From the NCBI GenBank assembly GCA_903948415.1, contig CAJAYO010000569.1, forward strand, positions 1 to 61,909: a stretch of DNA of 61,909 nucleotides, given 5' to 3'. The stretch is from an uncultured Opitutia bacterium (GTDB lineage: Bacteria > Verrucomicrobiota > Verrucomicrobiia > Opitutales > Opitutaceae). Below are positions 9,708 to 34,007 of the stretch, one piece after another. Positions within the stretch are counted from its first letter, which is position 1. Each line of letters begins with the position of its first letter. Made by a program: the position numbers and the translations under genes. The notes below the pieces were generated by a model. It was not told the origin of the DNA, ran no database searches, and was given only the letters and a program-made list of their open reading frames with translations.

Positions 9708-10607
9708 TCAGGTCGCGGCCTGCTGAATGATTTCACCGGCGAGGCGGCGGTAGTCGTTGATCACGTTGTCGCCGCCCAGTCCGGCATCGGTGGCCTCGGT
9801 GCCGACCAGCGCGACGGGCAGACCGAGCGCGACGGCGCGGCGCACCACCATCGCGTCGCGGATCTGCGTCTCCAGGATCTTCGCCGACGGCGCGGCGCGC
9901 TTGGCCGTGCGAAACTGGTTCAGCCGCAGCTGCAGGCGCATCTTCGGCACCTCGATGTCCACGCCCGCCTTGATCGAATTGAAAATCAGCCCCTGCACCT
10001 GCGCGGGCACGCCCATCGCGGACGTGCGGAAACTCGCGGACAACTGGTGAAACTTGTAGAGTTTTTCGACCAGGAGCGTGAACCCGATCAGGCTCAGCGC
10101 ATCGGGATTCACCGGCACGTAGATCTCGTTCGACGAAAAAATCCCGCACTGCGAGGCGCGCAAAATATTCGGCGGGCAGTCGAACAGAATAAAATCATAG
10201 TTCGCCTCGATCGCCGCCAGCTGCTCGGCAAACACCACGTAGTGGGGACGCTTCGGGTCGCCGTTGAACTCGTTTTCCAGGTCCACCAGGTTGAACGTCG
10301 TCGGCACGAGATCGAGGCCCGGCAGCAGTTTTTCCCCGGCCTTCCCCTCGACGACGTCCTTGACGACGATATCCCGCACCTTGGCGCGGCCCGGGTCAAA
10401 GATGGAATAGACCGAGCCTTCGCCAGCCGCATTGATCTTATTCCAGCGGTCGAGCCGCAGGAGCCAGATGCTCGCGTTCGACTGGGTGTCGAAGTCGCAA
10501 AGCAGGACGCGCTTGCCCAGCTTGGCGAGCGCCGCCGCGATATTGACGATCAGCGAGGTCTTGCCGACCCCGCCCTTGTAGTTGATGAAACTGATTTTTC
10601 GCGCCAT
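9708..10607 (-). CDS. ParA/MinD-family P-loop ATPase (orphan, no ParB adjacent)
   Basis: 299 aa. It has the deviant Walker A with signature lysine (MARKISFINYKGGVGKTSLIVNIAAALA), then ..VLLCDFDTQSNAS.. and a Walker B-like YDFILFDCPP. Confidence 0.85.
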   Translation of the reverse strand: MARKISFINYKGGVGKTSLIVNIAAALAKLGKRVLLCDFDTQSNASIWLLRLDRWNKINAAGEGSVYSIFDPGRAKVRDIVVKDVVEGKAGEKLLPGLDLVPTTFNLVDLENEFNGDPKRPHYVVFAEQLAAIEANYDFILFDCPPNILRASQCGIFSSNEIYVPVNPDALSLIGFTLLVEKLYKFHQLSASFRTSAMGVPAQVQGLIFNSIKAGVDIEVPKMRLQLRLNQFRTAKRAAPSAKILETQIRDAMVVRRAVALGLPVALVGTEATDAGLGGDNVINDYRRLAGEIIQQAAT

Positions 10608-19622: not shown

Positions 19623-20828
19623 ATGAGTCTCACCGGCAGCCAGCAAAAAATCTTCCTCCGCCTCGTCGCCGCGCTCCGCCCCAACTGGCACAGCGACGTC
19701 AACCTCCCCGCGGGCATCTCCGAACTGTTCGCCGCCAACCGCTCGTTCGGTTCGCGCGACCGCCGCCTGTATCGCGAACTCATCTACACCACGCTGCGCT
19801 TCCTGCCGTGGATTGAGCCGCTCCTCGACACCGATCCCGACCGCGCCGCCAAAGCCGTCGCCTGGCTCGCCGCCGACCTGCCCGCCACCCAGGGCTACCG
19901 CGCCGCCCTCTGCGCCGCCTGGCCCGCCTGCCCGCCCTCGGTCGCCGCCAAGGCCGCGCACCTCGGCGCCAGCGCGGACACCCTGCTGCCCGCGTGGATG
20001 ACCCGCCATTGCCCTGAGGCCGCCGTCGCGCCCAACCTCGACACGCTCCATACCCGCGCCCCGCTCTGGCTCCGCCTGCAGTCCAACGACGCCGCACGCG
20101 TCGTCGCCGAGTTCACCGCGAAACAGTGGCCCACGCGCCGCTCGCCCGTCCTCCCGGGTGCACTCGAAGTTCTCGCCGAGGCCGACGTCACCAAGTCCGA
20201 CGCGTGGACCCACGGCCTCATCGAGGTCCAGGACCTCGGCTCCCAGCTCATTTTGGAATCCGCCGCGATCGCGCCCGGCGGCCGTTGGCTCGACGCCTGC
20301 GCCGGTGCCGGGGGCAAAACCCTCCAGCTCGCCGCACTCCTCGGCCCCAAGGGCCACGTCGACGCGCACGACATCCGCGCCTCCGCCCTCCGCGAACTCG
20401 AGATCCGCGCCACCCGCGCCCGCGCCACGACCATCTCCGTTCTCCCCGCCCTGCCTGCGACCGCCGCCTACGACGGCGTGTTGGTCGACGCCCCGTGCAG
20501 CGGCACCGGGACTTGGCGCCGCGCCCCGCACCTCAAGTGGACGACCAGCGCCGGCCAGGTCAGCACCGCCGCCGAAAAACAACTCGCCCTGCTCGCCCAA
20601 TTTTCCGCGCTCGTGCGCCCCGGCGGCCGTCTCCTTTACGCGACCTGCTCGCTCAGCCACCTGGAAAACGAAGACGTCGTCACCGCCTTCCTCGCCGCCC
20701 ACGGCGATTTCACCGCCGAGCCCCCCGCCCGCGCCTTCGGCGGCACGCCGCGCCGCGTCGGCCTCGCCATTTTGCCCGCCGCCCACAACACCGACGGTTT
20801 CTATGTCGCGTCGCTGCGCCGGAGCTAA
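19623..20828 (+). CDS. RsmB/Sun-family RNA (cytosine-C5) methyltransferase
   Basis: An ATG at 19623 gives MSLTGSQQKIF... The SAM-binding motif is VQDLGSQLILESAAIAPGGRWLDACAGAGGKTLQLA, and the catalytic Cys motifs are VLVDAPCSGTGTWRRAPHLKW and LLYATCSLSHLENE. Confidence 0.8.
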   Translation: MSLTGSQQKIFLRLVAALRPNWHSDVNLPAGISELFAANRSFGSRDRRLYRELIYTTLRFLPWIEPLLDTDPDRAAKAVAWLAADLPATQGYRAALCAAWPACPPSVAAKAAHLGASADTLLPAWMTRHCPEAAVAPNLDTLHTRAPLWLRLQSNDAARVVAEFTAKQWPTRRSPVLPGALEVLAEADVTKSDAWTHGLIEVQDLGSQLILESAAIAPGGRWLDACAGAGGKTLQLAALLGPKGHVDAHDIRASALRELEIRATRARATTISVLPALPATAAYDGVLVDAPCSGTGTWRRAPHLKWTTSAGQVSTAAEKQLALLAQFSALVRPGGRLLYATCSLSHLENEDVVTAFLAAHGDFTAEPPARAFGGTPRRVGLAILPAAHNTDGFYVASLRRS

Positions 20829-20829
20829 A

Positions 20830-20890
20830 GTAGGGCGGACTTCCGTCCGCCTTGGTTAAGCACCCGACGGCGGACTGAAGTCCGCCCTAC
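20830..20890. terminator. pair of inverted copies of a GTAGGGCGGAC-TTC(C/A)-GTCCGCC hairpin element between convergent genes
   Basis: 20830-20851 is GTAGGGCGGACTTCCGTCCGCC. 20869-20890 is its reverse complement with one loop mismatch. Each copy is itself a 7-bp stem with a 4-nt loop. Together they sit between the rsmB-like stop (20828) and the amidohydrolase stop (20894). Confidence 0.55.
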
Positions 20891-20893
20891 TCC

Positions 20894-21868
20894 TCAGACC
20901 GGCTTCCGCAACAGTCCGGCCAGCCGCGTAAACGTTTCCTCGCCGAACCCGAGCGCCCGCTTGATCTGCGCATCGCGCTCCACCGGATTGGCGATCTGCG
21001 CCGTCGCGCGCCACTCGCGCCACCCCATCAGGCCGAACGCCCACATCACCGCGCCCGTGACCGGCACCGGCACGTCGCTGCCGTGCAGCATCCGCGCGGC
21101 CAGCTCCGGCTCGAGCATCCGTTTCAACGCCCCCGGTCGCAGCCGAAAATTGACCGCCGCCAGCGCGCTGTTGTCGCCGTAGAGCCGCGGAAAGCGGCGC
21201 GTCATCTCCACGAACACCTCAAAATAATCGGGATCGATCAGCATCGTCCCCGTGCCGCTGTGCGCCGCGATGCACGTCACGCCGATCTCCAACGCCCGCG
21301 TGAGCACCCGCGGATCCGCCAGTTTCGGCGCGAGCACCGGCAACGTCCGCTCGCTGCCCGTGTGCGCGAGAAGAATCAGCCCGCTCTCCGCCATCCGCTC
21401 GAGAAACCGCGTGTAGCGCACGTCGTTCCAGTCGATGTTCTGGCAATTCGGCAGGCACTTCAGCATCACCGCGCCGCCGGCCAGACAACGCTCCAACTCC
21501 TCCCGCGCGTCGCGCCGCGCCGGATGGATCGACACCGCCGGCAACAACTCGCGGTGCGTGCGGGCGAGCTGCAGCACAAAATCGTTGGGCACATAAAACG
21601 AGCCCGCCTCTCCGATTTTTGTCCCGTCGTCCCGGTGCGGCTCGTCCTGCGCGAGGATCACCACCGCATCGAGCGACGACTCGCGCACGAAGTGCAGCAG
21701 CCGCTCCGCATACAGCCGGTCGAGATCACCCGTGAGCGCACCCGCGGGCAGCCCCACGCTGCGCAGCATGAACGGCGCGCCGTATTTCGTCACGCCGCGC
21801 GGCCGATACCAGCAACCCGTGCCGCCCGTGCCGTTGCCGACGACGTGGACGTGACAGTCGATGCGCAC
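20894..21868 (-). CDS. amidohydrolase-family metal-dependent hydrolase
   Basis: 324 aa. The N-terminal MRIDCHVHVVGNG is the HxH metal-binding motif of TIM-barrel amidohydrolases, and later His/Asp residues are spaced appropriately (LLAHTGSE, IAAHSGTG, HGSDVPV). Confidence 0.6.
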   Translation of the reverse strand: MRIDCHVHVVGNGTGGTGCWYRPRGVTKYGAPFMLRSVGLPAGALTGDLDRLYAERLLHFVRESSLDAVVILAQDEPHRDDGTKIGEAGSFYVPNDFVLQLARTHRELLPAVSIHPARRDAREELERCLAGGAVMLKCLPNCQNIDWNDVRYTRFLERMAESGLILLAHTGSERTLPVLAPKLADPRVLTRALEIGVTCIAAHSGTGTMLIDPDYFEVFVEMTRRFPRLYGDNSALAAVNFRLRPGALKRMLEPELAARMLHGSDVPVPVTGAVMWAFGLMGWREWRATAQIANPVERDAQIKRALGFGEETFTRLAGLLRKPV

Positions 21869-21904
21869 GGCGGGTGGGTTCGCAGCCGGGAACGCTTCAG
21901 AACT

Positions 21905-24130
21905 TCACCGCGGCAGCGCGAGCTCGCGGCACCCCTTGAGGTCGAGCTTGCCCGTGCCCAGCACCGGGATTTTTTCCACCCGCCGGATGAGCTTCGGCAC
22001 CCAGAGCCCCGGCATGCCGCTGGCGAGCAGTTTCTCCCGGATCACGTCGCTCGTAAAATCCAGCGTCGTGAGCAGCACGAGCGCCTCGCCCTTGCTCGCG
22101 TCGGGCACGCCGATGACGACCACGACATAGCCGGCGGTCTGGTCGAGGTCGAACAGCTCGCTGATTTTGTTTTCCACCGTGCCGTGCGGCACCATCTCGC
22201 CGCCGATTTTGGAGAACCGCGACAGCCGGCCCTCGATGAACAGGAATCCGTCCTCGTCGAACCGCCCGAGGTCGCCCGTGACAAACCAACCGTCGCGAAA
22301 CGCCCCCTTCGTCTTCTCCGGGTCGTCGAGATAACCCGCGAACACGTTCGCGCCCCGGAACAGCACCATGCCGGTCTCGGACATCGGCAGTTCCTGCCAC
22401 GTCTCCGGATCCACGACCCGCGCCGTCATGCCGGGCATCATCCGGCCGACGGCTCCGGGCCGGTTGCCGAGCTGCGGCTCGTTCGTCGACACGACGACCG
22501 GCGGATGCGGCTGGTTGATATTCGCGGCCGGCGTCGTCTCCGTCAGCCCGTAGCCCTGCATGATTTCGATGTGAAACGTCTCCCGGAACGTCCGCGCCAG
22601 GTCGTCGGGCAGCTTCTCCGCCCCGGTCACCACGAGATCCAGCGACCGCAGCTCGCCCGGCAGCGCCTTCTTCAGCACGGGCCGGATAAACGTCGGCGCC
22701 CCCAGCAGCACCGTCGCTTTTTCGTCGCGGATCGCCTCGATGATTTTCCGCGTGTCCAACGGGCTCGGCACCGTGACGACGTGGCACCCGCGGAGCAGCG
22801 GATACCAGAGCGTGACCGTGAAACCGAAGCTGTGAAACACCGGCAGGCACCCGAGCAGCGAACACGTCTCGGGCAGGATCGAGAGCGAGGAAATCTGCGC
22901 GCAGTTCGCGAGAATGTTGCGGTGCGACAGCACGACGCCCTTCGGCTCGCCCGAACTCCCGCTCGTGAACAGCAAGCCCGCCTCCTCCCGGTCGCCGCAC
23001 CGCGGCAGCCCGAGCAGATCTGCACACACTTGGTTGGGGAGCACCCATGCCGCGATCAGCCACGGCAACAGCGCGCGTTTGCCGCCGCACGCCTCGATCT
23101 CGGCCTTGAGATCCAGCGTCCGCTCCGGCCACGGAAAATTCGGCAGCTTCGCCCGCACCGCGTCCGCGCTCAACACCGTGGCAATGCCGCCCAGCTTTAA
23201 ACTCGCTTCGATTCCCGCGCGCGCGGTCGTGAAATTCAGGTTCACGGGAATCTTCCCCGCCGCCAGGATCGCGAGATTCGCGATAAACGCCCCCGCCCCC
23301 GGCGGCAGCACGACGCCCACGCGCCGCTCCGGGACCGTTGCGCGGATCCGCCGCGACAGGGCCGCCGCCGCCGCATAGAGCTGTCCGCATGTCACCGCCC
23401 GCCGCCCGAACGTGCGGTCGATCACCTGCACGCGCCCCGGATGTTTCGCGAGCGCCCGGATGCATTCGCGCCCGAGATGCCGCTTCAACACCGGCCGTTC
23501 CTCGAACGCCCGGCACCCCAGATCGAGCAGTTCGCGCCGCGCCCAGGCGGGGCTCACCCGGTCCGGCGCCGTCGCCGTGCCAAACGCGATGAACGCGTGC
23601 GTCGGCAGCAACCGCGGCGACTTCCAGAGATATTTGTTGCCCGCAAACGAGAACACCGAGCCCCACAGCCCGTCGATCGCCGCCGCGATCACGGGCACGT
23701 TCGCCTGGCGGGCCATAACCTCGAAGCCGCGCTGAATTTCCATCAGCTGCCCGGTGCGCGAAATGTGCCCTTCCGGACACAGGCACACCAGCTCCCCCGC
23801 CTTCAGCGCCGCCACCGCCGCTTTCATCCCCGCCCGCGGCTGCTCCACCGAGATCGGGATCGACCCGCTCATTTCAAAACACCAGTTGAAAAACCCATTC
23901 CGCCTCAGTCCCTGGTGGCCGACAAACCGGATCGGCCGCGGACACGCCAGCTGCAGCACGACCACGTCGACGTAGGAAATGTGGTTCGCAATCAGCAATA
24001 CGCCGCCCGTGGACGGGATGTTCCCCGCACCGCTGGTCCGCACACGATAAAGCACGCGCGCAACCGAGCGGGCGATGAGTTCGAGCAAAAACGGGAGGTG
24101 GGAGCGCCGACGAAAGGCGGAATAGGGCAT
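21905..24130 (-). CDS. aas: bifunctional lysophospholipid acyltransferase / acyl-ACP synthetase (Aas-like)
   Basis: 741 aa. The N-terminal PlsC-type HX4D motif is LLIANHISYVDVVVL. The C-terminal AMP-binding domain shows LLFTSGSSGEPKGVVLSHRN, MQGYGLTETT, GWFVTGDLG and GKLDLK. Confidence 0.85.
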   Translation of the reverse strand: MPYSAFRRRSHLPFLLELIARSVARVLYRVRTSGAGNIPSTGGVLLIANHISYVDVVVLQLACPRPIRFVGHQGLRRNGFFNWCFEMSGSIPISVEQPRAGMKAAVAALKAGELVCLCPEGHISRTGQLMEIQRGFEVMARQANVPVIAAAIDGLWGSVFSFAGNKYLWKSPRLLPTHAFIAFGTATAPDRVSPAWARRELLDLGCRAFEERPVLKRHLGRECIRALAKHPGRVQVIDRTFGRRAVTCGQLYAAAAALSRRIRATVPERRVGVVLPPGAGAFIANLAILAAGKIPVNLNFTTARAGIEASLKLGGIATVLSADAVRAKLPNFPWPERTLDLKAEIEACGGKRALLPWLIAAWVLPNQVCADLLGLPRCGDREEAGLLFTSGSSGEPKGVVLSHRNILANCAQISSLSILPETCSLLGCLPVFHSFGFTVTLWYPLLRGCHVVTVPSPLDTRKIIEAIRDEKATVLLGAPTFIRPVLKKALPGELRSLDLVVTGAEKLPDDLARTFRETFHIEIMQGYGLTETTPAANINQPHPPVVVSTNEPQLGNRPGAVGRMMPGMTARVVDPETWQELPMSETGMVLFRGANVFAGYLDDPEKTKGAFRDGWFVTGDLGRFDEDGFLFIEGRLSRFSKIGGEMVPHGTVENKISELFDLDQTAGYVVVVIGVPDASKGEALVLLTTLDFTSDVIREKLLASGMPGLWVPKLIRRVEKIPVLGTGKLDLKGCRELALPR

Positions 24131-24458
24131 GAGCGCGGAGGAGTTATGGCGCCAAATTCGGCGGAGTTTCCAAGCTTTTTATCCGGGCAACGCAGCCGCG
24201 ACGGATAGGCCTTACCGTCGCGCACCACGCGTTTGCGGTCACGCCGGTGCCGCGGAGATGCCCTCGGCGCCGACCCGCTCGTCGCTCGCCGTCACCCACG
24301 CCGCTGCGAAGGTTTTCGGGGGGGCACTTCCTCGACCAGGCCGGTTCCCTCGCCGTGGCGTTCCGTTCCAGGCTCGCCAGCGTGGCGCGGCACTCGTCCC
24401 TCCGTTGCGCGCCCAGCCCCGCGGTCACTGGCCCAACCGCGTCCATCCAGATCGAGCG

Positions 24459-25100
24459 TCAACGGTTGATTTTGCCCCATTCCCGCACGTCCGCGGCGAG
24501 CGCGCGAAAGCCCGGGAAATCGTGCTCCAGCCGCCGCGGATCGCGCCGCAGCCGTTCCAACTCGTGCAGCGCGCACCGGATCTCGTGCGGCAGGCTCGGG
24601 CGGTCCGTCCCGTAGGCCCGCCATTTCAACTCCGCCCGCGAGTAGGGCGCCCGCCCGCCGTCCTGCCCGGCGAGCCACGCCGCCTCCGTCACGCCGGGGT
24701 CGCGCCCGCACAGCAGCCACGCCTCCAGCGCGGGCACCGCCACGCCCACGGCCCGCAGCACCCGCGCCCGGCCGTGCGCCGCCGGAAATTTCTTCGTCGT
24801 CCGGTGAAAAATCCCGCGCAACTGGCACATCCGGCAATGCGGATGAAAATACCCCGGCGCATCGTGCGCCGCCGTGTGCACCACCGAATCGTCCGAGTCG
24901 CAACTCACGACGAGCGCATCGGTGTCCGTGTTGAAATGCAGATGCCGGATCACCGCCGGCAGCAGTTGCGCGACGTTCGGCCACCCGCGCGCCCGCAGCC
25001 CGGGCGACACAAACTGCGGCGGCGCGCCCAGCACCGCCTCGACCAACACCCGCAGCACCGCCTCGTCGGCCGGCGACTCGCTCAACAGCGCCACTTTCAT
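24459..25100 (-). CDS. small Toprim-like protein (DUF4276/RloB/AriB-like, putative nuclease partner of the upstream ATPase)
   Basis: An internal ATG at 25100 in ORF 24459..25139 gives MKVALLSESPADEAVLRVLVEAVLG... (213 aa). The first beta-strand ends in acidic residues (SESPADE, compare the Toprim Glu), and a DxD-type motif VVSCDSDDSV lies ~70 aa later. The ATG overlaps the ATPase stop as ATGA (25100-25097). Confidence 0.55.
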   Translation of the reverse strand: MKVALLSESPADEAVLRVLVEAVLGAPPQFVSPGLRARGWPNVAQLLPAVIRHLHFNTDTDALVVSCDSDDSVVHTAAHDAPGYFHPHCRMCQLRGIFHRTTKKFPAAHGRARVLRAVGVAVPALEAWLLCGRDPGVTEAAWLAGQDGGRAPYSRAELKWRAYGTDRPSLPHEIRCALHELERLRRDPRRLEHDFPGFRALAADVREWGKINR

Positions 25101-26077
25101 CGTTCCTCCGGCACGCCGCCGAGGATGCCGCTGAACCACATGTCGCCGAGCGAGCCTTCGCTCAACAGTTCCTTGAGATCCGCCCGGTCCGCCAGCCGTT
25201 CGAAGCGCGCCTCGGCCCCGTGTTTCTGCGCGATCACAATCTCCTCCGGGTGCTCCCGGAACAAATCCAGCAGGTACGGCGAATGCGTCGTCGCGATCAC
25301 CTGCACGGCCCGCCGCGCGAGCCCGAACGACTGCGGATAACTCAGCCGGTAGAGCACGTCGCGCACCTCGCGCAACATCCGCGGATGAATGCCCCGGTCG
25401 ATCTCCTCAATGCACAGCACCGACGGCGGATCGGGATCGAACGCCAGCGCGAGCATCCCCAGCAGATAAAGCGTGCCCTGCGACAGATTGTCCGCCGTCA
25501 CCACCTCGCCGTTGTCGAGCCGCAGGCCAAACTCCGCCGCGCCCGCCGCGTCCTCCGTCACCTCGAGTCCGCAAAACTCCGGCAGGAGCCGGATCGCCTC
25601 GGCCGTCAGCGCCGCAAACTCCGCCGGCGCCCGCGTGCGCAACGTCGCCAACACCGCCGCCAGATTCCCGCCGCCGGCCGACAACTCCGCACCCGTGCGC
25701 ACCAGCGACGGCTCGGCCATCGCCTCCTGGTCCAGCCGATACGAGCGGATGTGGGCGATCATCGCGCGCACGACGGGCCACTCGGGCGCCTCCGCCGGCA
25801 CCACCCGCAGCAAATCGCAGACATGGTCCGACAGGCAGCCCAGGTTCACGTGCACCGTGTCGTGCGGCGGCCAGAAACGAAACTCGATCTGCGGACCGCC
25901 GGTCTTCGGCTCGCCCTCGGCCAGCGGCAGCTTCGCCAGCGTCCGCAGCCGCAACAGCGCCTGAATCAGGCTCGTCTTGCCGCTCCCGTTCGGGCCGATG
26001 ACCAGATTGAACGGCGCGAGCACGAGGCTGGTTTCCCGCAACGCTTTGAAATTTCGAAATGCGACAGACGCGATCAC
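25097..26077 (-). CDS. ABC-type (SMC/OLD-like, AAA_21/AAA_15-type) ATPase
   Basis: 326 aa with a GTG start. VIASVAFRNFKALRETSLVLAPFNLVIGPNGSGKTSLIQAL carries the Walker A. The ABC signature is DNLSQGTLYLLGM, Walker B/D-loop is VLCIEEIDRGIHP and the H-loop is VIATTHSPYLL. The start overlaps the upstream stop as GTGA (26077-26074). Confidence 0.8.
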   Translation of the reverse strand: MIASVAFRNFKALRETSLVLAPFNLVIGPNGSGKTSLIQALLRLRTLAKLPLAEGEPKTGGPQIEFRFWPPHDTVHVNLGCLSDHVCDLLRVVPAEAPEWPVVRAMIAHIRSYRLDQEAMAEPSLVRTGAELSAGGGNLAAVLATLRTRAPAEFAALTAEAIRLLPEFCGLEVTEDAAGAAEFGLRLDNGEVVTADNLSQGTLYLLGMLALAFDPDPPSVLCIEEIDRGIHPRMLREVRDVLYRLSYPQSFGLARRAVQVIATTHSPYLLDLFREHPEEIVIAQKHGAEARFERLADRADLKELLSEGSLGDMWFSGILGGVPEER

Positions 26078-27425
26078 GCGACACTCTCAACCGGATTTCC
26101 CGCCGCCGCCAGCCCGCAAATGCCCGCTCTCCCCAGCCGCGCTTGCACCGTCCGCCGGTCCCGATCGAGCCGCCGCGCCGTCTCCTCGATGCTCCCCGCC
26201 TGCGCGAACACGATGCGCGTGTCGCGCCGCAACAGCTCCTCCGCCGTCAGCGCCCCGGACTCCATGAGGACATTCCAGTCCTCGGCCCCGGCCCGCACCA
26301 GCGGCCCCGCCGGCCGGTCGTCCGCGCGCAAAACCAGATTCCGCCCGCACGGCTCGCGTTCGCGAAAATTCCCCCGCCACGGCTGCCGCGCCCCGAGCGC
26401 CGTCTCGATCCACGCCAGCGCCCCGCGCGTGCACTCCGCCGCCTCGTCCTCCCCGCGCAACCGCCCCGCGATGTGCGTCACCAGCGTCGACCATTCGTCG
26501 GGCGACGCGTCGAGCTGCTCGCGCAGCGACGGCGTCGCGAGCTGGTCGGAGCACAGGCGGTAATAAAAATCCTCCCGGAACCGCCCGGCCCGCCTCTCCG
26601 CCGGCCGGTCGCGGTTCGTCGCCGCGATGATCTTCGCCGCGAAGCGCCGCGACTCCGTTCCGCCCGGCGGCGGAAACGCGCGCGCCTGCAGCACCCGCAA
26701 CCGCTTCACCTGAATGTCCGTCCCCACCTCGCCGATCTCATCGAGGAACACCGCCCCCGTCGGCGGACACACCTCCATCCAACCCGCCCGGTCCGCCAAC
26801 GCCCCGGAAAACGCGCCGCGCCGGTGACCGAACAACGCCGACTCAATCAGCGTGGGCGACAGCGCGGCCAGGTTCAGCGGGAAAAACCCCGCGGCAAAAT
26901 CTTGCGTGAACGCCCCGCGCTTCGGCGCGGAGGGCACGTAACGCGAAAGCGCGCGGGCCCGCGCGACCAGTTCTTTGCCCGTGCCCGACGGCCCGTTGAT
27001 CAGCCTGGAGAAATCCCCCTCCGCGCGTGCCGGCCGCGGCGATCGCGCCCCAGATCGTGCGTGAAGAGTGACTGCCGGATCGCCGCCCGCAACCGCGCCA
27101 TCGGCGCCGATCCGCCCACGCGCGAGCGGAAAATAGTGTGCACGGCCCGCCGGATTTGACACGCGCTCGCCAACCGCTGCGACGCCGGCTGCGGCCCGAT
27201 GCGCTCCCCCAGCCCCGGCAACGCGAAAAGCTTTTCCGCCTCCGCCCGAAACGCCGGAAAACTCGCCGTCGCCGTCGGCGGGCGCGTGTTCCACTCCGCC
27301 TCGTGCTCCTGAAAATCCGCGCCCAACGCCGCGCGTTCCGCCGCGATCCGCTCCGGCAAAAACGGATTCGGCCCGTTCATCCCGTGCACCGCCTCCGCCA
27401 AACGCCGGTCGGCCGGACTGAACAC
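26074..27425 (-). pseudogene. sigma54-dependent transcriptional activator (bEBP, AAA+ plus Fis-type HTH), split by a -1 frame change
   Basis: The N-terminal part is in ORF 27000..27425 (probable ATG at 27380: MNGPNPFLPERIAAER...VGGSAPMARLRAAIRQSLFTHDLG). The AAA+ part is in the 26074.. frame: LINGPSGTGKELVARA (Walker A), ESALFGHRRGAFSGA (GAFTGA-loop variant), AVFLDEIGEV (Walker B), LRVLQ, GRFREDFYYRL, and C-terminal SIEETARRLDRDRRTVQARL (HTH). The two frames join if one G is added to the GGGG run (plus-strand CCCC at 27048-27051). Confidence 0.7.
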
Positions 27426-27564
27426 GGCCCCGGGAGCTTTGCTCGTTTTTGCCCTGTTTTGTCAGTCGCCTGCCGTTTTCTGCCAATCCACGGCACGCGT
27501 CCGCGCGGGGCAAAAAACCAATGACCCAAGGACCGCAGCAGGTAACGCGCTTCGCATCCGCCGC

Positions 27565-27579
27565 GGCACGGCCCGGGCA
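27565..27579 (+). promoter_or_regulatory. candidate sigma54 (-24/-12) promoter
   Basis: GGCAC-GGCCC-GGGCA: GG at 27565-66 and GC at 27577-78 match the canonical TGGCAC-N5-TTGCA spacing. It lies ~40 nt upstream of the ATG at 27620 and is divergent from the bEBP gene. Confidence 0.35.
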
Positions 27580-27619
27580 ATGGCCGGCGGCGTCGCTCCA
27601 CCGCGTCACCCTCCCCTCC

Positions 27620-27811
27620 ATGAAATTCCCGCCTCGTCTCCGCGCCGGTCTCGCCGCACTCGCCGCACTGGCCGCGGGCGCCGCCTCCGCTTTCGCCGCC
27701 GGCACGCTCCTTCCCACCGACGCCCCTCACGCCCCACTCCAGATCCGCGTCCACCAGGTCAATGTGACGCGCAATAACGGGTTTGCGCAGACCGCGGTGC
27801 TCCAGACGTTC
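27620..27811 (+). pseudogene. 5' remnant (about 64 codons) of a VIT-domain (VIT/vWA-type) secreted protein gene
   Basis: MKFPPRLRAGLAALAALAAGAASAFAAGTLLPTDAPHAPLQIRVHQVNVTRNNGFAQTAVLQTF is a signal peptide plus the typical start of a VIT domain. Beyond 27811 the frame turns into Ser/Pro/Arg/Cys-rich nonsense. Confidence 0.5.
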
Positions 27812-28005
27812 TCCCGTGGCTCACTCTCGCCCTCGCCGCCGCGACGATGGTCGTCCCGCTCCTCCCCGGCGCGGCGGGGGGACTGCCATGCGACCGCGCG
27901 GCGCTGGCCCGCGGTGAGCTGTGGCGCTTGTTCACCGCGCACCTCGCGCACTTCGGCCCCAATCACCTGCTCTGGGACCTCGCGGTCTTTCTCGTGCTCG
28001 GCGGC
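27811..28005 (+). pseudogene. 5' remnant of a rhombosortase/rhomboid-family intramembrane protease gene
   Basis: A different frame from 27811 reads LPWLTLALAAATMVVPLLPGAAGGLPCDRAALARGELWRLFTAHLAHFGPNHLLWDLAVFLVLG. This matches TM1 and the DR-x-A-x3-GE-WWRL-T-x-H-x-H-x4-HL-x-N-L region of rhombosortases. Only ~65 residues are recognisable, and uvrA starts ~210 bp later, so the remaining ~130 codons are missing. Confidence 0.5.
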
Positions 28006-28217
28006 ACACGGGTCGGCCTGTTCGCCACCTCGCTCTGCCGCCGTGGCCACCGACCCGCCACCGTGTGCGACGCCCTCGTGCTCGCCGGCTGCACCCCCCG
28101 CCTCCTCGGTCCCCCAACTCCGGCGCGCCGCTTGCTGACTGCATCCGAATCGGAGGCATCGCCTTACCCCGCACTCCGAGTTGCATTCCCTCCAACCCCC
28201 GCCATCCGTGTCGGCCT

Positions 28218-31200
28218 GTGGTTAAGCAACTCGCCTCATCCTCCCGCGCCGCCTCGCCCTCGCCCGAATGCATCCGCCTGCGCGGCGTCCGGCAAAACAA
28301 CCTCAAGGGCTTCGACCTCGACGTCCCGCTCGGCCGCTACATCGCCGTCACCGGCCTGAGCGGCGCCGGCAAATCCTCCCTCGTCTTCGATACCCTGCAC
28401 GCCGAAGGGCAACGCCGCTACGTCGAGACGTTCAGCGCCTATACCCGCCAGTTCCTCGATCTCCTCGACAAACCCAAGGTCGACCGCATCGAAAACATCC
28501 GGCCCTCCATCGCCATCGAGCAGTCCAACACCGTCAAAACCTCCCGCTCCACTGTCGGCACGATGACGGAGCTCACCGATTTCTTCAAAGTCTGGTTCAG
28601 CCACGTCGCGGAATGCTTCGACCCCGCCACCGGCGAAAAGGTCGAGGACGACAACCCGCAGACCATCTGGGCCAAGACCGCCGCCGCCCACGCCAACCGC
28701 ACGCTCCTCGTCTGCTTTCGCGTCGCCAAGCCCGCCAACCTCACGTGGCCCGAGATCCTCACCAATCTCAAAAACCAGGGCTACGTCCGCCTCCTCGCCG
28801 ACGACACCGTCCACAAGATCGAGGACCTGCTCTCGGCTTCCGCCTCCGGGCCCTCGACGCTCGACGCTTCGCTCTCAACGCTGACCGCCATCCACGTCAT
28901 CCAGGACCGCCTCGGCCTCACCGCGGCGAACAAGTCGCGTTTCCTCGAGGCGACCGAGACCGCCCTCCACTTCGGCCAAGGCCAGGTTTTTTTCTTCGAC
29001 GCCCAGGCCGCCGCTCCCGGCACGCCGCACTTCCCGCCCGCCGGCCATTTCTCCCGCGGCCTCCACTCGCCCTCGACCGGCCGCACGTTCCGCGCCGCCT
29101 CGCCCGCTCTCTTTTCGTTCAACTCTCCCCTCGGCGCCTGCCCGAAGTGCCGCGGCTTCGGCCGCGTGATCGACATCGACTACCGCCTCACCGTCCCCGA
29201 CCAGTCCCTCTCCCTCGACGACGGCGCCATCAAGTGCTGGGAGAGCGAAATCTACGGCGAGTCCAAAAAAGACCTCTACGTTTTCGCCAAGAAGAAGAAA
29301 ATCCCGACCCACGTCCCGTTCGCCTCGCTCACGCCCGAGCAACAGAGCTTCGTGATCGACGGCGAACCCGGCTACGGCGAGGAAAACGGCAAGCCCTGGC
29401 CGCAGTATTGGTATGGCGTGAAGGGCTTCTTCCGCTGGCTCGAGAAGAGCACCTACAAGATGCACGTGCGCGTCTTCCTCGCCCGCTACCGCGCCTACAA
29501 CCCTTGCCCGGCCTGCGGCGGCCAGCGCCTCCAGCCCGAAGCCCTTTGCTGGAAATGGCAAAACCGCACGCTCCCCGATCTCTACCAACTCCCCGTCTCC
29601 GCACTCCTGACCCTCATTGCTCATTGGTCATCCGGCCCGGACCATTCAAACGGGTCCGCCCACTCCGCTGATCTCGCGTTCGACTCCATCCGGACCCGTT
29701 TGCGCTACCTCGCCCAGGTCGGCCTCGCCTACCTCACCCTCGACCGCCAGTCCAAAACCCTCTCCGGCGGCGAAGTCCAACGCGTCAACCTCACCTCCTG
29801 CCTCGGCACCTCGCTGATCGACACGCTTTTCGTCCTCGATGAACCCAGCGTCGGCCTGCACCCGCGCGACATCGACCGCCTCATCGCGATCATCCGCACC
29901 CTCACCGACTCCGGGAACACCGTCGTCGTCGTGGAACACGACGAGGCCATGATCCGCGCCGCCGATCACGTCATCGAAGTCGGCCCCGAGCCCGGCAGCC
30001 GCGGCGGCCACATCGTTTTCGAGGGCACGGTCCCCGCCCTCCTCGCCTCGACCGCCAGCATCACCGGCGCCTACTTCTCCGGCCGCGAAACGATCGCCAC
30101 GCCCGCCTCCCGCCGCCCCGTTCCGGCCGGCCACCCGTCGCTCCATTTCACGAACGCCACGAAGCACAATCTCCGCGACCTCTCGTTTTCCCTCCCCCTG
30201 CACCGGCTCGTTTGCCTCAGCGGCGTCTCCGGCTCCGGCAAGTCCACCCTGCTCGACCACGTCATCTACCAGGGCCTCCTCGCGCAACGCCTCCAGCTCA
30301 CCGAAGACCCCGCCGCCATCGCATCCATTTCCCCCTTACCGGCGGACGCCCCGTTTTCCGAAATCCTCCTCGTCGACCAGTCGCCCCTCTCCCGCACCCC
30401 GCGCTCGAACCCCGCGCTCTACACCGAAGCCTGGGATCTCATCCGCGACCTCTACGCCGCCACCCCCGCCGCCCAGGCCGCCGGCTTCAACCACTCGTCG
30501 TTCTCTTTCAACAGCGGCGACGGCCGCTGCGACCACTGTCTCGGCCTCGGCTACGAGCGCGTCGAGATGCAGTTTCTCTCCGACGTTTTCGTCCCGTGCC
30601 CCGTCTGCGAAAGCCGCCGCTTCAAACCCGAGGTCCTCGCCATCCGCTGGAACGACCGCTCCGTCGCCGACCTGCTCGCCACACCTGTCACCGACGCCCT
30701 GGCGCTTTTCGCCGACCACCCGGCCATCCGCACCCGCCTCTCCTCCCTCGAATCCGTCGGCCTTGGCTACCTCACCCTCGGCCAGCCCCTCAACACCCTC
30801 AGCGGCGGCGAATCCCAACGCCTCAAACTCGTCCGCTACCTCGGCACCTACACCGCTGCGTCCGACGCCCAGCCCTCGGCTCCGCTCGCGCCCGCCCCGG
30901 GCGCGTTGCTCCTCCTCGACGAACCCACCACCGGCCTCCACCGCCACGACGTCAAACGCCTCCTCGCCGTTCTCCAGGCCTTGGTCGACCGCGGCCACAG
31001 CGTCATCGTCATCGAACACAACCTCGACGTCCTCAAATCCGCCGACTGGCTCCTCGAAATCGGCCCCGACGCCGGCGCCGACGGCGGCCGCATCGTCGCC
31101 GAAGGCCCGCCCGAGCTCGTCGCCCGCGCCGCCAACGCGACGTCGCCCTTCCTCCTCGCCGCCCTCGCCGCCGATGACCGCGCCCTCCTCGCCGCCGAAG

Positions 31201-33977
31201 CCCCCGCCCCCTACCTGACAAACCCGCCGTCGCTCACCGCTCTCCCCTCCACGCTCCGCGCGACCTCCCGCGCCACGCTGGAGATCGTCGGCGCCCGCGA
31301 GAACAACCTCAAAAACCTCTCGCTCTCGATCGCCCACCGCCAACTCACCGTCGTCACCGGCGTCTCCGGCTCCGGCAAATCCACCCTCGCCTTCGACATC
31401 GTGTTCGCCGAGGGCCAGCGCCGCTTCATGGAGTCCATGTCGCCCTATGCGCGCCAGTTCGTCGAACAGCTCCCCCGCCCCGCCGTCGACCGGCTCACCG
31501 GCATTCCGCCCACCGTCGCGATCGAGCAACGCGTCACGCGCGGCTCCCGCAAATCCACCGTCGCGACCATCACCGAGGTCGCCCAATACCTCCGCCTCCT
31601 CTACGCGCGCCTCGGGATCCAGCACCATCCCGACTCCGACAAACCCGTCACGCCCCTCTCGCCCGGACAACTGCGCGCCCTCCTCGCCCGCGTCCTCGCC
31701 TCCCCCGCCGCCCTCCGCGCGAAACACCTCTACCTCTGCGCCCCGCTCATCCGCGGTCGCAAGGGCCACCACCAGCCCATCGCCACCTGGATCGCCAAGC
31801 AGGGTTACGAACTCCTGCGCGCCGACGGCCAGCTCACCCGCGTCGACGCCTTCCAAAAACTCGACCGCTACAAGGAGCACGACATCGAGGTCGTCGTCGC
31901 GGATCTGAAGCAGGAACCGCGCACCGGTCCCGCGCTCGACCGCGCCCTCCGCCTCGGCAAAGGCGCCTGCTTCCTCCTCACCCCCCAGGGCACGATCCTC
32001 TCCTGGTTCTCCACCACCCGCACCGACATCGAGACCGGCGAGAGTTTCCCGGAGCTCGACCCGAAAAATTTCTCCTTCAACTCGCCGCGCGGCTGGTGTC
32101 CCACCTGCCGCGGCCACGGCCGCGTTTTCCCCTGGATGCTCGAGCCCACCGACGACGACAAGGACGACTCCGCCGCGCGCCTCCGCGAATTCGGCGTCGA
32201 CTCCGCCGACGACCTTTCCGACACCGGCTCGCCCTGCCCCGACTGCCACGGCGCCCGGCTCAACCGCATCGGCCGCGCCGTCAAACTCGCCTTCCGCCCT
32301 TCCGCCAAACAGCTGCCCCTCTCCCTCCCCGGCCTTCTCGCCGCCACCCCGTCGCAACTCCTCGTCCACCTCCGCTCCCTCGCACTCGACGCCCGCGGCA
32401 CCCTCATCACCCAGGACATCGTCCCGCAAATCGAGGAACGCCTCAAATTCCTCGACCACGTCGGCCTCGGCTATCTCTCGCTCGACCGCCCCACCGACAC
32501 CCTCTCCGGCGGCGAAGCCCAACGCATCCGCCTCGCCGCCCAGCTCGGCACCAATCTCGCCGGCGTCCTCTACGTCCTCGACGAGCCCAGCATCGGCCTC
32601 CACGCCCGCGACAACGACCGCCTCATCGAAACCCTCGAAGCCCTCCGCGCGAAGGGCAACACCCTCCTCGTCGTCGAGCACGACGACGAACTCATGGCGC
32701 GCGCCGACCGCATCATCGACCTCGGTCCCGCCGCCGGCATCCACGGCGGCGAACTCCTCGCACACGGCACCCCCGCCGAGATCCGCGCCAGCGCCAGCTC
32801 CCTCACCGGCCTCTTCCTCGCCAAGGGCATCGCCCACCCGCTGCGCGGCGCCTATCGCCCGCTCGCCCATCCCCCCGCCAAAACCTCCGATCCCGCGTCC
32901 GCTCCGCTCACGCTCACGGGCGTTTCGTTTCGCAACCTGAAAAACGTCGACCTCCGCCTCCCACCGGGCCGTCTCATTATGGTCGCCGGCCCGAGCGGCG
33001 CCGGAAAATCCACGCTCTTCCGCGACGTGCTCCAGCCCGCCGTCGCCCACGCGATCAAAGCGAAAGCCAAAAAACTCACCGGCCGCGATTTCGTCCAAGC
33101 GACCGGCTTCGCCACCGAAGGCTCGCCCACGCCCTTCACCGCGCTCACCGGCGCCGGCTCGTTCCGTTCCGTCATCGAGGTCGACCAATCCCCCATCGGC
33201 AAGACCCCGCGCTCCACCCCGGCGACCTATCTCGGCATCTTCGATCTCATCCGCCAGTTCTTCGCCTCGCTGCCCGAGTCAAAGATCCGCGGATACGCCG
33301 CCGGACGCTTCTCCTTCAACACCGCCGGCGGCCGCTGCCCCGCCTGCGAGGGCGCCGGCCGGATCAAACTCGAGATGGCGTTCATGCCCGACACCTATCT
33401 CCCCTGCGACGACTGCCGCGGCTCCCGCTACAGCCCCGACCTCGACGACATCACGTGGAAAAGCAAAACCATCGGTCAAGTCCTCCAGCTCACCTTCGAG
33501 GAGGCCGCGCTGTTTTTCGATTTCCACTCCCAGCTTTCGCAGGTCTGCCGGCTCATGGTCGAGTGCGGCCTCGGCTACCTCACGCTCGGCCAGTCCTCCC
33601 CGACGCTCTCCGGCGGCGAAGCCCAGCGCCTCAAACTCGTCACCGAACTCTCCACCGGCCTCGCCACCTACCGCGAACGCTCGCGCGGCACCCTCCCGCG
33701 CAACCTCTATCTCCTCGAGGAACCCACCATCGGCCTCCACCTCAGCGACTGCGAGAAACTCATCCACGTCCTCCATTCCCTCGTGGACCAGGGCCACACC
33801 GTTGTCGTCATCGAGCATCACCTCGACCTGCTCCTCGAAGCGGATTACATCGTTGAACTCGGTCCGGTCGGCGGCCCCGCCGGCGGCGAATTGCTCTACC
33901 AGGGCGACCTCGCCGGCCTGCTCAAAATCAAAGCCAGCCCGACCGCCCCCTACCTGCGCGCGAAACTGAAACGCTGA
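28218..33977 (+). CDS. uvrA: tandem-fused double UvrA (excinuclease ABC subunit A-like, four ABC nucleotide-binding domains in one chain)
   Basis: A GTG at 28218 in the frame of ORF 27921..33977 gives ~1919 aa. The first UvrA unit starts ECIRLRGVRQNNLKGFDLDVPLGRYIAVTGLSGAGKSSLVFDTLHAEGQRRYVETFSAYTRQFL. The second starts near 31270: LEIVGARENNLKNLSLSIAHRQLTVVTGVSGSGKSTLAFDIVFAEGQRRFMESMSPYARQFV. Each unit has two Walker A motifs, two LSGGE signatures and the C-terminal Cys4 module (GRCDHCLGLG...VPCPVCESRR and GRCPACEGAG...LPCDDCRGSR). Confidence 0.88.
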   Translation: MVKQLASSSRAASPSPECIRLRGVRQNNLKGFDLDVPLGRYIAVTGLSGAGKSSLVFDTLHAEGQRRYVETFSAYTRQFLDLLDKPKVDRIENIRPSIAIEQSNTVKTSRSTVGTMTELTDFFKVWFSHVAECFDPATGEKVEDDNPQTIWAKTAAAHANRTLLVCFRVAKPANLTWPEILTNLKNQGYVRLLADDTVHKIEDLLSASASGPSTLDASLSTLTAIHVIQDRLGLTAANKSRFLEATETALHFGQGQVFFFDAQAAAPGTPHFPPAGHFSRGLHSPSTGRTFRAASPALFSFNSPLGACPKCRGFGRVIDIDYRLTVPDQSLSLDDGAIKCWESEIYGESKKDLYVFAKKKKIPTHVPFASLTPEQQSFVIDGEPGYGEENGKPWPQYWYGVKGFFRWLEKSTYKMHVRVFLARYRAYNPCPACGGQRLQPEALCWKWQNRTLPDLYQLPVSALLTLIAHWSSGPDHSNGSAHSADLAFDSIRTRLRYLAQVGLAYLTLDRQSKTLSGGEVQRVNLTSCLGTSLIDTLFVLDEPSVGLHPRDIDRLIAIIRTLTDSGNTVVVVEHDEAMIRAADHVIEVGPEPGSRGGHIVFEGTVPALLASTASITGAYFSGRETIATPASRRPVPAGHPSLHFTNATKHNLRDLSFSLPLHRLVCLSGVSGSGKSTLLDHVIYQGLLAQRLQLTEDPAAIASISPLPADAPFSEILLVDQSPLSRTPRSNPALYTEAWDLIRDLYAATPAAQAAGFNHSSFSFNSGDGRCDHCLGLGYERVEMQFLSDVFVPCPVCESRRFKPEVLAIRWNDRSVADLLATPVTDALALFADHPAIRTRLSSLESVGLGYLTLGQPLNTLSGGESQRLKLVRYLGTYTAASDAQPSAPLAPAPGALLLLDEPTTGLHRHDVKRLLAVLQALVDRGHSVIVIEHNLDVLKSADWLLEIGPDAGADGGRIVAEGPPELVARAANATSPFLLAALAADDRALLAAEAPAPYLTNPPSLTALPSTLRATSRATLEIVGARENNLKNLSLSIAHRQLTVVTGVSGSGKSTLAFDIVFAEGQRRFMESMSPYARQFVEQLPRPAVDRLTGIPPTVAIEQRVTRGSRKSTVATITEVAQYLRLLYARLGIQHHPDSDKPVTPLSPGQLRALLARVLASPAALRAKHLYLCAPLIRGRKGHHQPIATWIAKQGYELLRADGQLTRVDAFQKLDRYKEHDIEVVVADLKQEPRTGPALDRALRLGKGACFLLTPQGTILSWFSTTRTDIETGESFPELDPKNFSFNSPRGWCPTCRGHGRVFPWMLEPTDDDKDDSAARLREFGVDSADDLSDTGSPCPDCHGARLNRIGRAVKLAFRPSAKQLPLSLPGLLAATPSQLLVHLRSLALDARGTLITQDIVPQIEERLKFLDHVGLGYLSLDRPTDTLSGGEAQRIRLAAQLGTNLAGVLYVLDEPSIGLHARDNDRLIETLEALRAKGNTLLVVEHDDELMARADRIIDLGPAAGIHGGELLAHGTPAEIRASASSLTGLFLAKGIAHPLRGAYRPLAHPPAKTSDPASAPLTLTGVSFRNLKNVDLRLPPGRLIMVAGPSGAGKSTLFRDVLQPAVAHAIKAKAKKLTGRDFVQATGFATEGSPTPFTALTGAGSFRSVIEVDQSPIGKTPRSTPATYLGIFDLIRQFFASLPESKIRGYAAGRFSFNTAGGRCPACEGAGRIKLEMAFMPDTYLPCDDCRGSRYSPDLDDITWKSKTIGQVLQLTFEEAALFFDFHSQLSQVCRLMVECGLGYLTLGQSSPTLSGGEAQRLKLVTELSTGLATYRERSRGTLPRNLYLLEEPTIGLHLSDCEKLIHVLHSLVDQGHTVVVIEHHLDLLLEADYIVELGPVGGPAGGELLYQGDLAGLLKIKASPTAPYLRAKLKR

Positions 33978-33982
33978 CCGCC

Positions 33983-34007
33983 CGCCCCGGCCCATCGGCC
34001 CGGGGCG
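33983..34007. terminator. GC-rich hairpin between convergent uvrA and the response-regulator gene
   Basis: The sequence is CGCCCCGGCC-CATC-GGCCCGGGGCG (imperfect, one bulge), located between stop codons at 33975-77 (+) and 34008-10 (-). Confidence 0.4.

Follow-up and report, generated by a model that had tools for sequence, protein, structure and literature searches.

The locus and its reading frames

Our analysis concerned a 61,909-nt stretch of DNA (the window; G+C, ~69%) from an uncultured Opitutia bacterium of the family Opitutaceae (contig CAJAYO010000569.1 of assembly GCA_903948415.1) and, within it, three consecutive frames on the minus strand: a 213-aa open reading frame (ORF; 24459-25100, ATG start), a 326-aa ORF for an ATPase (25097-26077, GTG start), and an upstream frame resembling a sigma-54-dependent activator, that is, a bacterial enhancer-binding protein (bEBP). 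An earlier note on this DNA had taken the three for one translationally coupled, sigma-54-controlled cassette lying in a variable defence locus. Our data indicated that the functional unit is, with a probability of roughly 0.7, a bicistronic, coupled operon of the 326-aa ATPase and its 213-aa partner, vertically inherited in the Opitutaceae, with the activator outside the unit. The ATPase and partner genes are both intact, and the window copy of the activator is a pseudogene. Of the two stop/start overlaps that seemed to chain the frames together, ATGA at 25100-25097, between the ATPase gene and the partner gene, is real and conserved (kept in 72 of 89 loci); the letters GTGA do stand at 26077-26074, but this overlap is secondary and arises from the loss of the activator's stop codon. 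The pairing itself extended to the wider partner family, in which a homologous ATPase gene lay directly 5' of the partner gene in 53 of the 53 diverse loci with room for one. The locus comprises the following features, in the order of their coordinates:

24345-24479, minus strand: weak remnant of a MarR-family gene, 3' of the pair (tblastn, residues 106-147 of 156, 42% identity, E = 6e-6)
24459-25100, minus strand: intact gene of the 213-aa partner, a putative TOPRIM-type metal-dependent nuclease, remotely RloB/DUF4276/HEC-01B-like
25097-25100, minus strand: ATGA stop/start overlap from the ATPase gene into the partner gene, read directly in the sequence
25097-26077, minus strand: intact gene of the 326-aa ABC/SMC-type ATPase (AAA_21/AAA_15, OLD-like), GTG start
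26074-27455, minus strand: pseudogene of a 511-aa sigma-54-dependent activator (bEBP), delimited by tblastn and orthologue alignment
27564-27579, plus strand: predicted degenerate sigma-54-type -24/-12 element CGGCACGGCCCGGGCA, facing the divergent VIT/VWA gene and away from the pair
27620-27838, plus strand: remnant of a VIT/VWA gene, recognisable over residues 8-66 of 677 only (tblastn with the protein of locus L010)
27811-28002, plus strand: remnant of a rhomboid protease gene, residues 5-68 of ~201 (tblastn)

Two samples of loci served for comparison. The Opitutaceae species loci (80) are the best 80 of 277 matched stretches in a collection with one genome per species, and the diverse loci (81) are 80 diverse metagenome loci of the wider partner family together with L093. 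The window was collinear with L011, a contig of a freshwater Opitutaceae metagenome-assembled genome (JBIKOK010000009.1), at a nucleotide identity of ~96%.

The ATPase and its partner protein

The ATPase motifs listed in the earlier note (GPNGSGKT, LSQGT, LCIEEID, and TTHSP) were all verified in the sequence, and its reading of the pair as a split OLD-like ATPase with a TOPRIM-like protein was supported, for the partner by remote matches only. The 326-aa protein matched Pfam AAA_21 (7.5e-31) and AAA_15 (5.1e-19); in PADLOC, its best match was the HEC-01A model PDLC04183 (1.6e-39), followed by five more HEC-01A models (3.9e-37 to 2.5e-33), AriA (5.3e-31), mad3 (1.4e-22), Old (2.8e-13), PDC-M07A, and AbiLi. 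The match to NCBIfam MAD3 (3.8e-27) was far under the cut-off of that model. The best PDB match of the ATPase profile was the ATPase domain of the OLD-family nuclease 6P74_A (1.4e-13), covering query residues 1-288. Among 30 aligned sequences, G31-S32-G33-K34 of Walker A and E224 of Walker B were invariant and H265 nearly so, and the window gene carried 0 changes at the 37 columns invariant among orthologues. A RecF/RecR-like identity was considered and rejected, the similarity being confined to the level of the P-loop (NCBIfam recF, 1.6e-7, ATPase residues 2-43).

The 213-aa partner had 1586 database relatives, the best 120 of which shared 75-95% identity with it, and an exhaustive profile search collected 605 family clusters at 50% identity, of which 222 scored below 1e-30, with nearly all members ~210 aa long. 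The partner gene showed 0 changes at 40 columns invariant in 86 orthologues. Both motifs that the earlier note had reported for this protein, KVALLSESPADE and VVSCDSDD, were confirmed in the sequence. Across 56 diverse family members with 37-51% identity to the query, E8, D68, P123, E126, W128, E139, and P196 were invariant (56/56), and the pattern of a TOPRIM metal site was found: a Glu after strand 1, D-x-D/N after strand 3, and the Glu of E-x-W. In two AlphaFold2 (AF2) models (predicted local distance difference test scores of 85.7 and 92.5), the predicted order of elements was a strand (2-6) followed by E8, a helix, a short strand (29-31), a helix, a strand (62-68) ending at D68, and then helices and a strand (115-121) followed by P123 and E126. 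This modelled order is compatible with TOPRIM topology.

Relatives of the partner among annotated families emerged at the level of its family. Taken singly, 23 of the 56 members matched HEC-01B of PADLOC (best, 1e-5) and 15 matched mad4; Pfam RloB (PF13707) and DUF4276 (PF14103), which we take to belong to one Toprim-like clan, were matched by 9 and 7 members, respectively, all sub-threshold, and no further family recurred in more than 6 of the 56. The family consensus matched RloB colinearly at 1e-5 (residues 42-194 against profile positions 44-181 of 195) and HEC-01B at 1.7e-6 (residues 1-131 against positions 1-117 of 204). When the partner family alignment was compared by hhalign with nine partners of the same gene-pair architecture, six of them annotated as DUF4276, the alignment (E = 3e-5) spanned 170 columns, nearly the full length of both, and placed E126 on the only invariant Glu of the DUF4276-type set. 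Proteins of the RloB, DUF4276, and HEC-01B groups have been described in the literature as TOPRIM-like. Our comparisons suggest that the partner may be a far-diverged relative of these proteins; its putative TOPRIM assignment draws on remote homology, motif pattern, and gene-pair architecture rather than on a structural match.

A side feature of the partner family lies at residues 75-92 (24825-24878, minus strand), where H75, C89, and C92 (CRxC) occur in 45-48 of the 56 members (C89 in 48 and C92 in 46) and are jointly gone in the minority. The distribution suggests an optional small metal-binding insert, possibly for zinc, between strand 3 and the next helix. The DUF4276-type partners in the alignment lack this putative insert.

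The sigma-54 activator and its divergent operon

The identification of the upstream frame as a bEBP was sound with respect to its family, since GPSGTGKE, GAFSGA, VFLDEIGE, and REDFYYRL are present and the AAA+ core matched Pfam Sigma54_activat at 1.1e-36, but the gene is dead and GAFSGA is itself a mutated GAFTGA. Orthologues of the activator are abundant in the Opitutaceae, typically 511 aa long, and carry GAFTGA and a C-terminal tail resembling a helix-turn-helix. Measured against them, the window copy is split over two frames (N-terminal part, 27449-27015; AAA+ part, 27018-26074) and bears several lesions: the start codon is lost (ATG to AGG at 27455-27453); an in-frame deletion of 69 codons has removed orthologue residues 66-134 (junction, 27261/27260); a 1-nt deletion between 27020 and 27019, in the Met codon of '...HARMGDFS', has shifted the frame; GAFTGA has become GAFSGA at 26817-26800, a position at which T is found in 103 of 103 orthologues; and the native stop codon TGA has become AGA at 26130-26128, the TGA being kept in L012 and in intact orthologues. 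Of the 143 columns invariant among 103 full-length orthologues, 18 carry a substitution and 5 a gap in the window copy; orthologues left out one at a time as controls showed 0.36 such changes on average and 4 at most. The reading of an intact activator whose frameshift is a sequencing error was rejected, because the copy bears four further lesions of independent origin and is hit at 23 invariant positions. After the stop codon was lost, the frame ran on for 18 codons to a TGA that overlaps the GTG of the ATPase gene, so that this loss alone accounts for the apparent GTGA coupling; in relatives with an intact activator, the two genes do not overlap and are separated by a spacer of 55-75 nt.

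The base changes in the pseudogene form an observation of their own. At sites where three intact orthologues agree, 80 AT-to-GC and 35 GC-to-AT changes were counted in 26074-27452 (minus strand), compared with 52 and 46 in the intact ATPase gene. Many of the lesions at invariant residues were T-to-G changes on the coding strand (Leu to Arg, Tyr to Asp, Phe to Val/Cys, and ATG to AGG). This pattern suggests GC-biased mutation or fixation in the neutral DNA of a high-GC lineage.

Loss of the activator was not confined to the window. In L011, residues 1-456 were lost together with the intergenic region and the N-terminus of a VIT/VWA gene, and in L012 only residues 305-511 were left, frameshifted; the ATPase and partner of both loci nevertheless stay 94-98% identical to those of the window. 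A comparison of L011 (3567-5806) with the window (26296-28002) showed that the activator-VIT/VWA-rhomboid module has suffered a different deletion in each, independently of the other: in L011, the rhomboid gene (221 aa) is intact and the VIT/VWA C-terminus is left, whereas the window keeps most of the activator and has lost nearly all of the VIT/VWA gene and two thirds of the rhomboid gene. The module is recurrently lost.

The companions of the activator lay on its other side. In every locus with enough upstream sequence, the activator was divergent from a gene for a 675-aa VIT/VWA protein and/or a rhomboid gene; the upstream side was cut off in L043, and a small 121-aa gene stood between the activator and the divergent genes in L009. 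A secreted VIT/VWA protein and a rhomboid protease are the conserved companions of this activator family. In all seven loci with an intact activator (7/7), a relaxed, position-aware motif scan predicted a -24/-12 element, TGGCAC-N5-xxGCA, with 8-9 of 11 consensus positions, 15-45 nt 5' of the ATG of the divergent gene and on the strand of that gene, against a chance expectation of 0.12 per region. In the window, the -24 element has drifted to CGGCAC. A strict sigma-54 pattern was found neither in eight relative loci nor in window positions 20000-34000. On the side of the pair, the relaxed scan detected no element in the spacers between activator and ATPase genes, and TGG[CT]A[CT]-N5-[TC]TGC occurred within 200 nt 5' of the ATPase start in 0 of 81 loci.

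A perfect palindrome, TGTCAG-N4-CTGACA, was also seen just 5' of the activator start in L010 (~9978-9993), L015, and L047, ~100 nt from the divergent -24/-12 element; the window copy (~27477-27462, minus strand) has its left arm decayed to CGGCAG. This palindrome could be the binding site of the activator, that is, a candidate upstream activating sequence. Compared with bEBPs of the NtrC/RtcR/PspF class, the window remnant shares the Sigma54_activat AAA+ core and differs in being a pseudogene, with the divergent VIT/VWA and rhomboid genes as its conserved partner and likely promoter. The ancestral job of the activator was most likely to drive this divergent operon from the predicted -24/-12 promoter, and the whole module would now be decaying in the lineage of the window.

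The model of the earlier note, in which the activator senses infection or damage and drives the ATPase/TOPRIM system or is an integral part of it, can be judged from the placement of the activator. In its favour, an intact 511-aa activator lies on the same strand 55-75 nt 5' of the pair in several close relatives (L009/L014, L010, L015, L047, and L081), which means that other genomes share the adjacency. Its AAA+ core also matched the PADLOC model RtcR_PspF2 CARF_AAA_HTH at 1.8e-47; this match covers the AAA+ core only (profile positions 187-389 of 481) and takes in no CARF domain, for which reason a CARF-type RtcR identity was rejected, and the N-terminal ~215 aa (residues 1-215 of the orthologues) matched no Pfam family. 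Across relatives, however, the activator does not regularly accompany the pair. Among the 80 species loci, the activator adjoined the pair in 4 (L014, L015, L047, and L081) and left a remnant in 2 (L011 and L012), in L075 it was seen at the contig edge only, and in most loci it was not found within the fetched flanks of up to 7-10 kb; in the diverse loci, an activator-like ORF beside the pair was found in 0 of 81. A four-gene ABC transporter separates activator and pair in L091, ~4 kb lie between them in L043, and in Nibricoccus (L092) the activator sits amid unrelated genes, with the pair nowhere near and the linkage to the VIT/VWA and/or rhomboid genes kept. Together with the linkage to the divergent operon, the separations in L091 and L043 indicate that the adjacency in the clade of the window is regional synteny, drawn closer by gene loss. 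The activator thus has five kinds of lesion in the window and different deletions in L011 and L012, where the pair is retained, and wherever its upstream side can be read it accompanies divergent genes bearing the -24/-12 element that the ATPase gene lacks; the three-gene cassette is already largely refuted for the window.

Beyond the module, the plus-strand ORF at 27921-33977 (window 28233-33971) is a single ORF of ~1,900 aa with two tandem UvrA-like halves. The two UvrA-like genes of L010 (862 aa and 1019 aa) lie head to tail in this one window frame at 83% and 89% identity, and the halves cross-match each other at 30-38%. The ORF looks like a fused 'double UvrA'.

Inheritance and role of the pair

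The best 80 of the 277 species stretches belonged to the Opitutaceae, Opitutales, or Verrucomicrobiota, bar one generic 'bacterium', and included the genera Opitutus, Lacunisphaera, Nibricoccus, and Horticoccus. The gene aas lay within the flank in 66 of the 80 species loci. Over 53 species, mean identity to the window was 75.8% for the partner, 64.4% for the ATPase, and 73.9% for aas, and the identities of the three proteins correlated with one another (Spearman, ~0.51). These correlated identities, taken with the synteny with aas, show that the pair is inherited vertically under purifying selection at a fixed, aas-adjoining site across the Opitutaceae. The pair persists while neighbouring genes decay, and purifying selection on it may be as strong as that on aas. 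The description of the site as an accessory pocket or variable defence locus is not supported, the pair being vertical, syntenic, and free of mobile-element marks; the decayed neighbours pointed out in the earlier note are real remnants, but they reflect lineage-specific gene loss, namely the decay of the neighbouring sigma-54 module.

The searches for mobility were negative. A scan of IMG/VR with the partner family profile gave no relatives, the 213-aa protein had no tblastn match among plasmid or phage records, and a repeat search around the pair for mobile-element boundaries returned only GC-rich chance matches. Rfam and tRNA scans of the whole window found nothing; in 24100-27700, a sigma-70 promoter scan likewise found none, and the terminator count was at chance level. 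The neighbours of the pair were aas, MarR, efflux, ABC-transporter, and other housekeeping genes, and not Hma. The neighbours tested at the diverse loci were also housekeeping genes (Wzt-type ABC ATPase, MarC, spermidine synthase, malate dehydrogenase, methylmalonyl-CoA mutase, Opp ATPase, GH3, Ddl, ThiC, and aminotransferase); at one distant locus, the pair stood beside BrnT/BrnA and PIN genes. Only two named sources of distant versions of the pair were recorded, Verrucomicrobiales and Opitutales.

Two observations concern the immediate flanks. In 25 of 78 Opitutaceae species loci (L002, L004, L009, L010, L091, and others), the next gene 3' of the pair, on the strand of the pair, encoded a MarR-family regulator and was often followed by genes for DUF2157/GDYXXLXY or DUF2339 membrane proteins. 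The variable part of the locus is the stretch between the pair and aas.

Homologues of the ATPase on plasmids presented a different picture. In the nine plasmid records inspected, the ATPase gene was directly followed by a gene of 170-225 aa in 9/9, six of these being annotated 'DUF4276 family protein', and 5/9 had surroundings of the defence type (type I restriction, methylase-helicase, Mrr, Dnd-associated, and prophage). An ATPase with a DUF4276 partner was seen in defence-type loci of a Meiothermus plasmid (L175), Aeromonas (L176), Ideonella (L179), and Synechocystis pSYSM (L178). One of these four sites is flanked by DUF4433/macro-domain genes and a type I restriction R subunit, and another, which is Hma-like, by a methyltransferase and a DEAD/DEAH helicase; of the other two, one is beside Mrr and one near a Dnd-associated methyltransferase. 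These plasmid contexts are those of classic defence, unlike the Opitutaceae locus.

Systems that combine an ABC ATPase with a TOPRIM protein have been described as OLD, Gabija, PARIS, AbiL, MAD3/4, and HEC-01 (PMC11464382; bioRxiv 10.1101/2024.01.29.577857), the last (PADLOC, 'Hma-embedded candidate 01') being an ABC ATPase with a TOPRIM protein (bioRxiv 10.1101/2024.01.29.577857). The window pair shares with HEC-01 the unit of an ATPase followed by its partner, the window ATPase matches six HEC-01A models, and members and consensus of the partner family match HEC-01B. It differs in that the window partner itself is below detection and the ATPase is 326 aa long versus ~360-460 in the HEC-01A models; moreover, the pair stands alone among housekeeping genes outside Hma, fixed and vertical in one family. 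With the pairs of an AAA_21 ATPase and a DUF4276 or RloB protein (RloA/RloB, AbiLi/AbiLii, and MAD3/MAD4), it has in common the gene order, the overlapping stop/start, and the motif order of E after strand 1, D-x-D/N, [IA]-x-E-A-W, and a C-terminal P-x-x-F. Matches of the window family to these groups, however, were all below curated thresholds, the family has a signature of its own (SESPADE, the CRxC pair in most members, and a C-terminal FPxGFG), and the pair, unlike those of this class, showed no association with restriction-modification or methylation genes.

The OLD-family nucleases (class 1, P2 Old; class 2, Thermus scotoductus OLD, PDB 6P74) and Gabija GajA resemble the window pair in the ATPase domain. 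In those proteins, TOPRIM is fused to the ATPase, whereas here the ATPase stops at residue 326 and a gene of its own encodes the partner; no link of the 213-aa protein to the OLD TOPRIM domain was found by sequence or by Foldseek. PARIS (AriA/AriB) is likewise a split ABC ATPase with a TOPRIM-type partner, and the AriA model matched the window ATPase, but the window ATPase, at 326 aa, is far smaller than AriA (~55 kDa), no DUF4435/AriB profile matched the window partner or any of the 56 family members, and the window pair is not on phages or satellites. We place the pair in the known class of AAA_21 ATPases with DUF4276/RloB partners (HEC-01-like), as a divergent member that stands alone and is fixed in the chromosome.

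By analogy with OLD, Gabija, PARIS, AbiL, MAD3/4, and HEC-01, the ATPase would bind and hydrolyse ATP as a sensor or regulator and, in this way, might control a metal-dependent nuclease site in the partner, putatively formed by E8, D68-x-D/N70, and E126. The role of the pair could be anti-phage defence or domesticated nucleic-acid maintenance: its homologues point to conflict systems, whereas its fixed, syntenic, and slow evolution among housekeeping genes points to a core function.

The strongest rival to a conflict-type role, though still doubtful, is that the pair is a domesticated housekeeping module for the repair or quality control of DNA or RNA, comparable to RecF/RecR or SbcCD; its fixation in the Opitutaceae core genome would then be accounted for. 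This reading draws on the fixed position beside aas, on a partner that evolves as slowly as aas, on the occurrence of relatives in 277 stretches of the species-representative collection, on neighbours such as malate dehydrogenase, methylmalonyl-CoA mutase, ThiC, and Ddl in diverse loci, and on the finding of no phage, plasmid, or viral-contig copies and no mobile-element marks. Against it, the closest relatives that could be recognised for either protein all belong to conflict systems (HEC-01, MAD3/4, AbiL, PARIS, and OLD), the plasmid homologues sit in restriction-modification, Hma, Mrr, or Dnd contexts, similarity to RecF/RecR does not go beyond the P-loop, and one distant locus lies beside BrnT/BrnA and PIN.

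Several results weigh against our reading of the pair, most of them at the partner. The window protein gave no Pfam, PADLOC, or NCBIfam match at E<=1, so that the Toprim-like profile expected in the earlier note surfaced only as the sub-threshold matches of family members and consensus. The consensus match to RloB, at 26.2 bits, is below the Pfam gathering score of 31.5, and the hhalign probability was only 73.5%. The 'DxD' reported for the protein is true of the window (VVSCDSDD), but its second Asp varies: of the 56 members, 38 have D at position 70 and 18, about a third, have N. The earlier assignment of a TOPRIM-like fold, which the remote matches favour at family level, also found no counterpart among known structures. 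Foldseek searches of the PDB with both AF2 models gave 0 matches at E<=1e-3, with no TOPRIM, OLD, or AriB among the best 50, and searches of BFVD gave nothing significant (an RloB-like phage protein ranked 19th; E = 0.21; TM-score, 0.38); the best folds were generic flavodoxin/Rossmann-like ones (lumazine synthase, PurE, PTS EIIA, and RpiB; TM-score, 0.2-0.4). Against PDB sequences, the profile of one partner alignment (A1) retrieved nothing, and the family alignment (A2) retrieved only chance matches to Arf GTPases on 'VVVDSDD' (E = 0.04 and weaker). With regard to defence, family-wide vertical fixation amid housekeeping neighbours is unlike variable defence genes and leaves that reading weak, and HEC-01 gave no phage defence in the only published assay (bioRxiv 10.1101/2024.01.29.577857). 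As for the exclusion of the activator, the predicted sigma-54 promoter is a product of motif scanning only, and read-through from the activator gene into the pair may occur in relatives with an intact activator.

The partner results also bear on a second rival, under which the 213-aa protein has a generic Rossmann-like fold and serves, without catalysis, as an adaptor or regulator, its likeness to RloB/DUF4276 being convergent or too weak to imply function. The Foldseek matches, the lack of a Pfam match above threshold, and the variable second Asp are what such a protein would lead one to expect. However, none of E8, D68, E126, and E139 varies among the 56 members, although their identity to the query is only 37-51%; the AF2 models would put the acidic residues behind strands 1, 3, and 4, which is where TOPRIM has them; and E126 corresponds to the only invariant Glu of the DUF4276-type set in a colinear, full-length alignment of proteins from an identical gene-pair architecture. 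We therefore regard a non-nuclease partner as improbable. The weakest rival, the sigma-54 activator as sensor, driver, or third component of the pair, is very hard to sustain after the findings on the activator set out above.

Taken as a two-gene unit without the activator, the pair behaves as a core gene pair that is vertical, syntenic, and slowly evolving, unlike mobile defence genes. There is no sigma-54-coupled OLD-like defence cassette at this locus, and a false lead is thereby removed; the orphan activator family, for its part, gains a likely regulon in the predicted sigma-54-dependent VIT/VWA-rhomboid operon. The partner family, with its ~600 clusters at 50% identity, is missed by current Pfam and PADLOC models and would add a large branch to the class of ABC ATPases with TOPRIM-like partners. 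A more novel reading, though a doubtful one, is that a module of conflict type has become fixed in the core genome of a whole family, either in a domesticated, essential or near-essential maintenance role or as an unusually stable 'core' immune pair. If the pair is immune, it would provide an example of a stably fixed immune system; if it is a housekeeping pair, it would show the domestication of the ATPase-TOPRIM-like architecture in the Opitutaceae.

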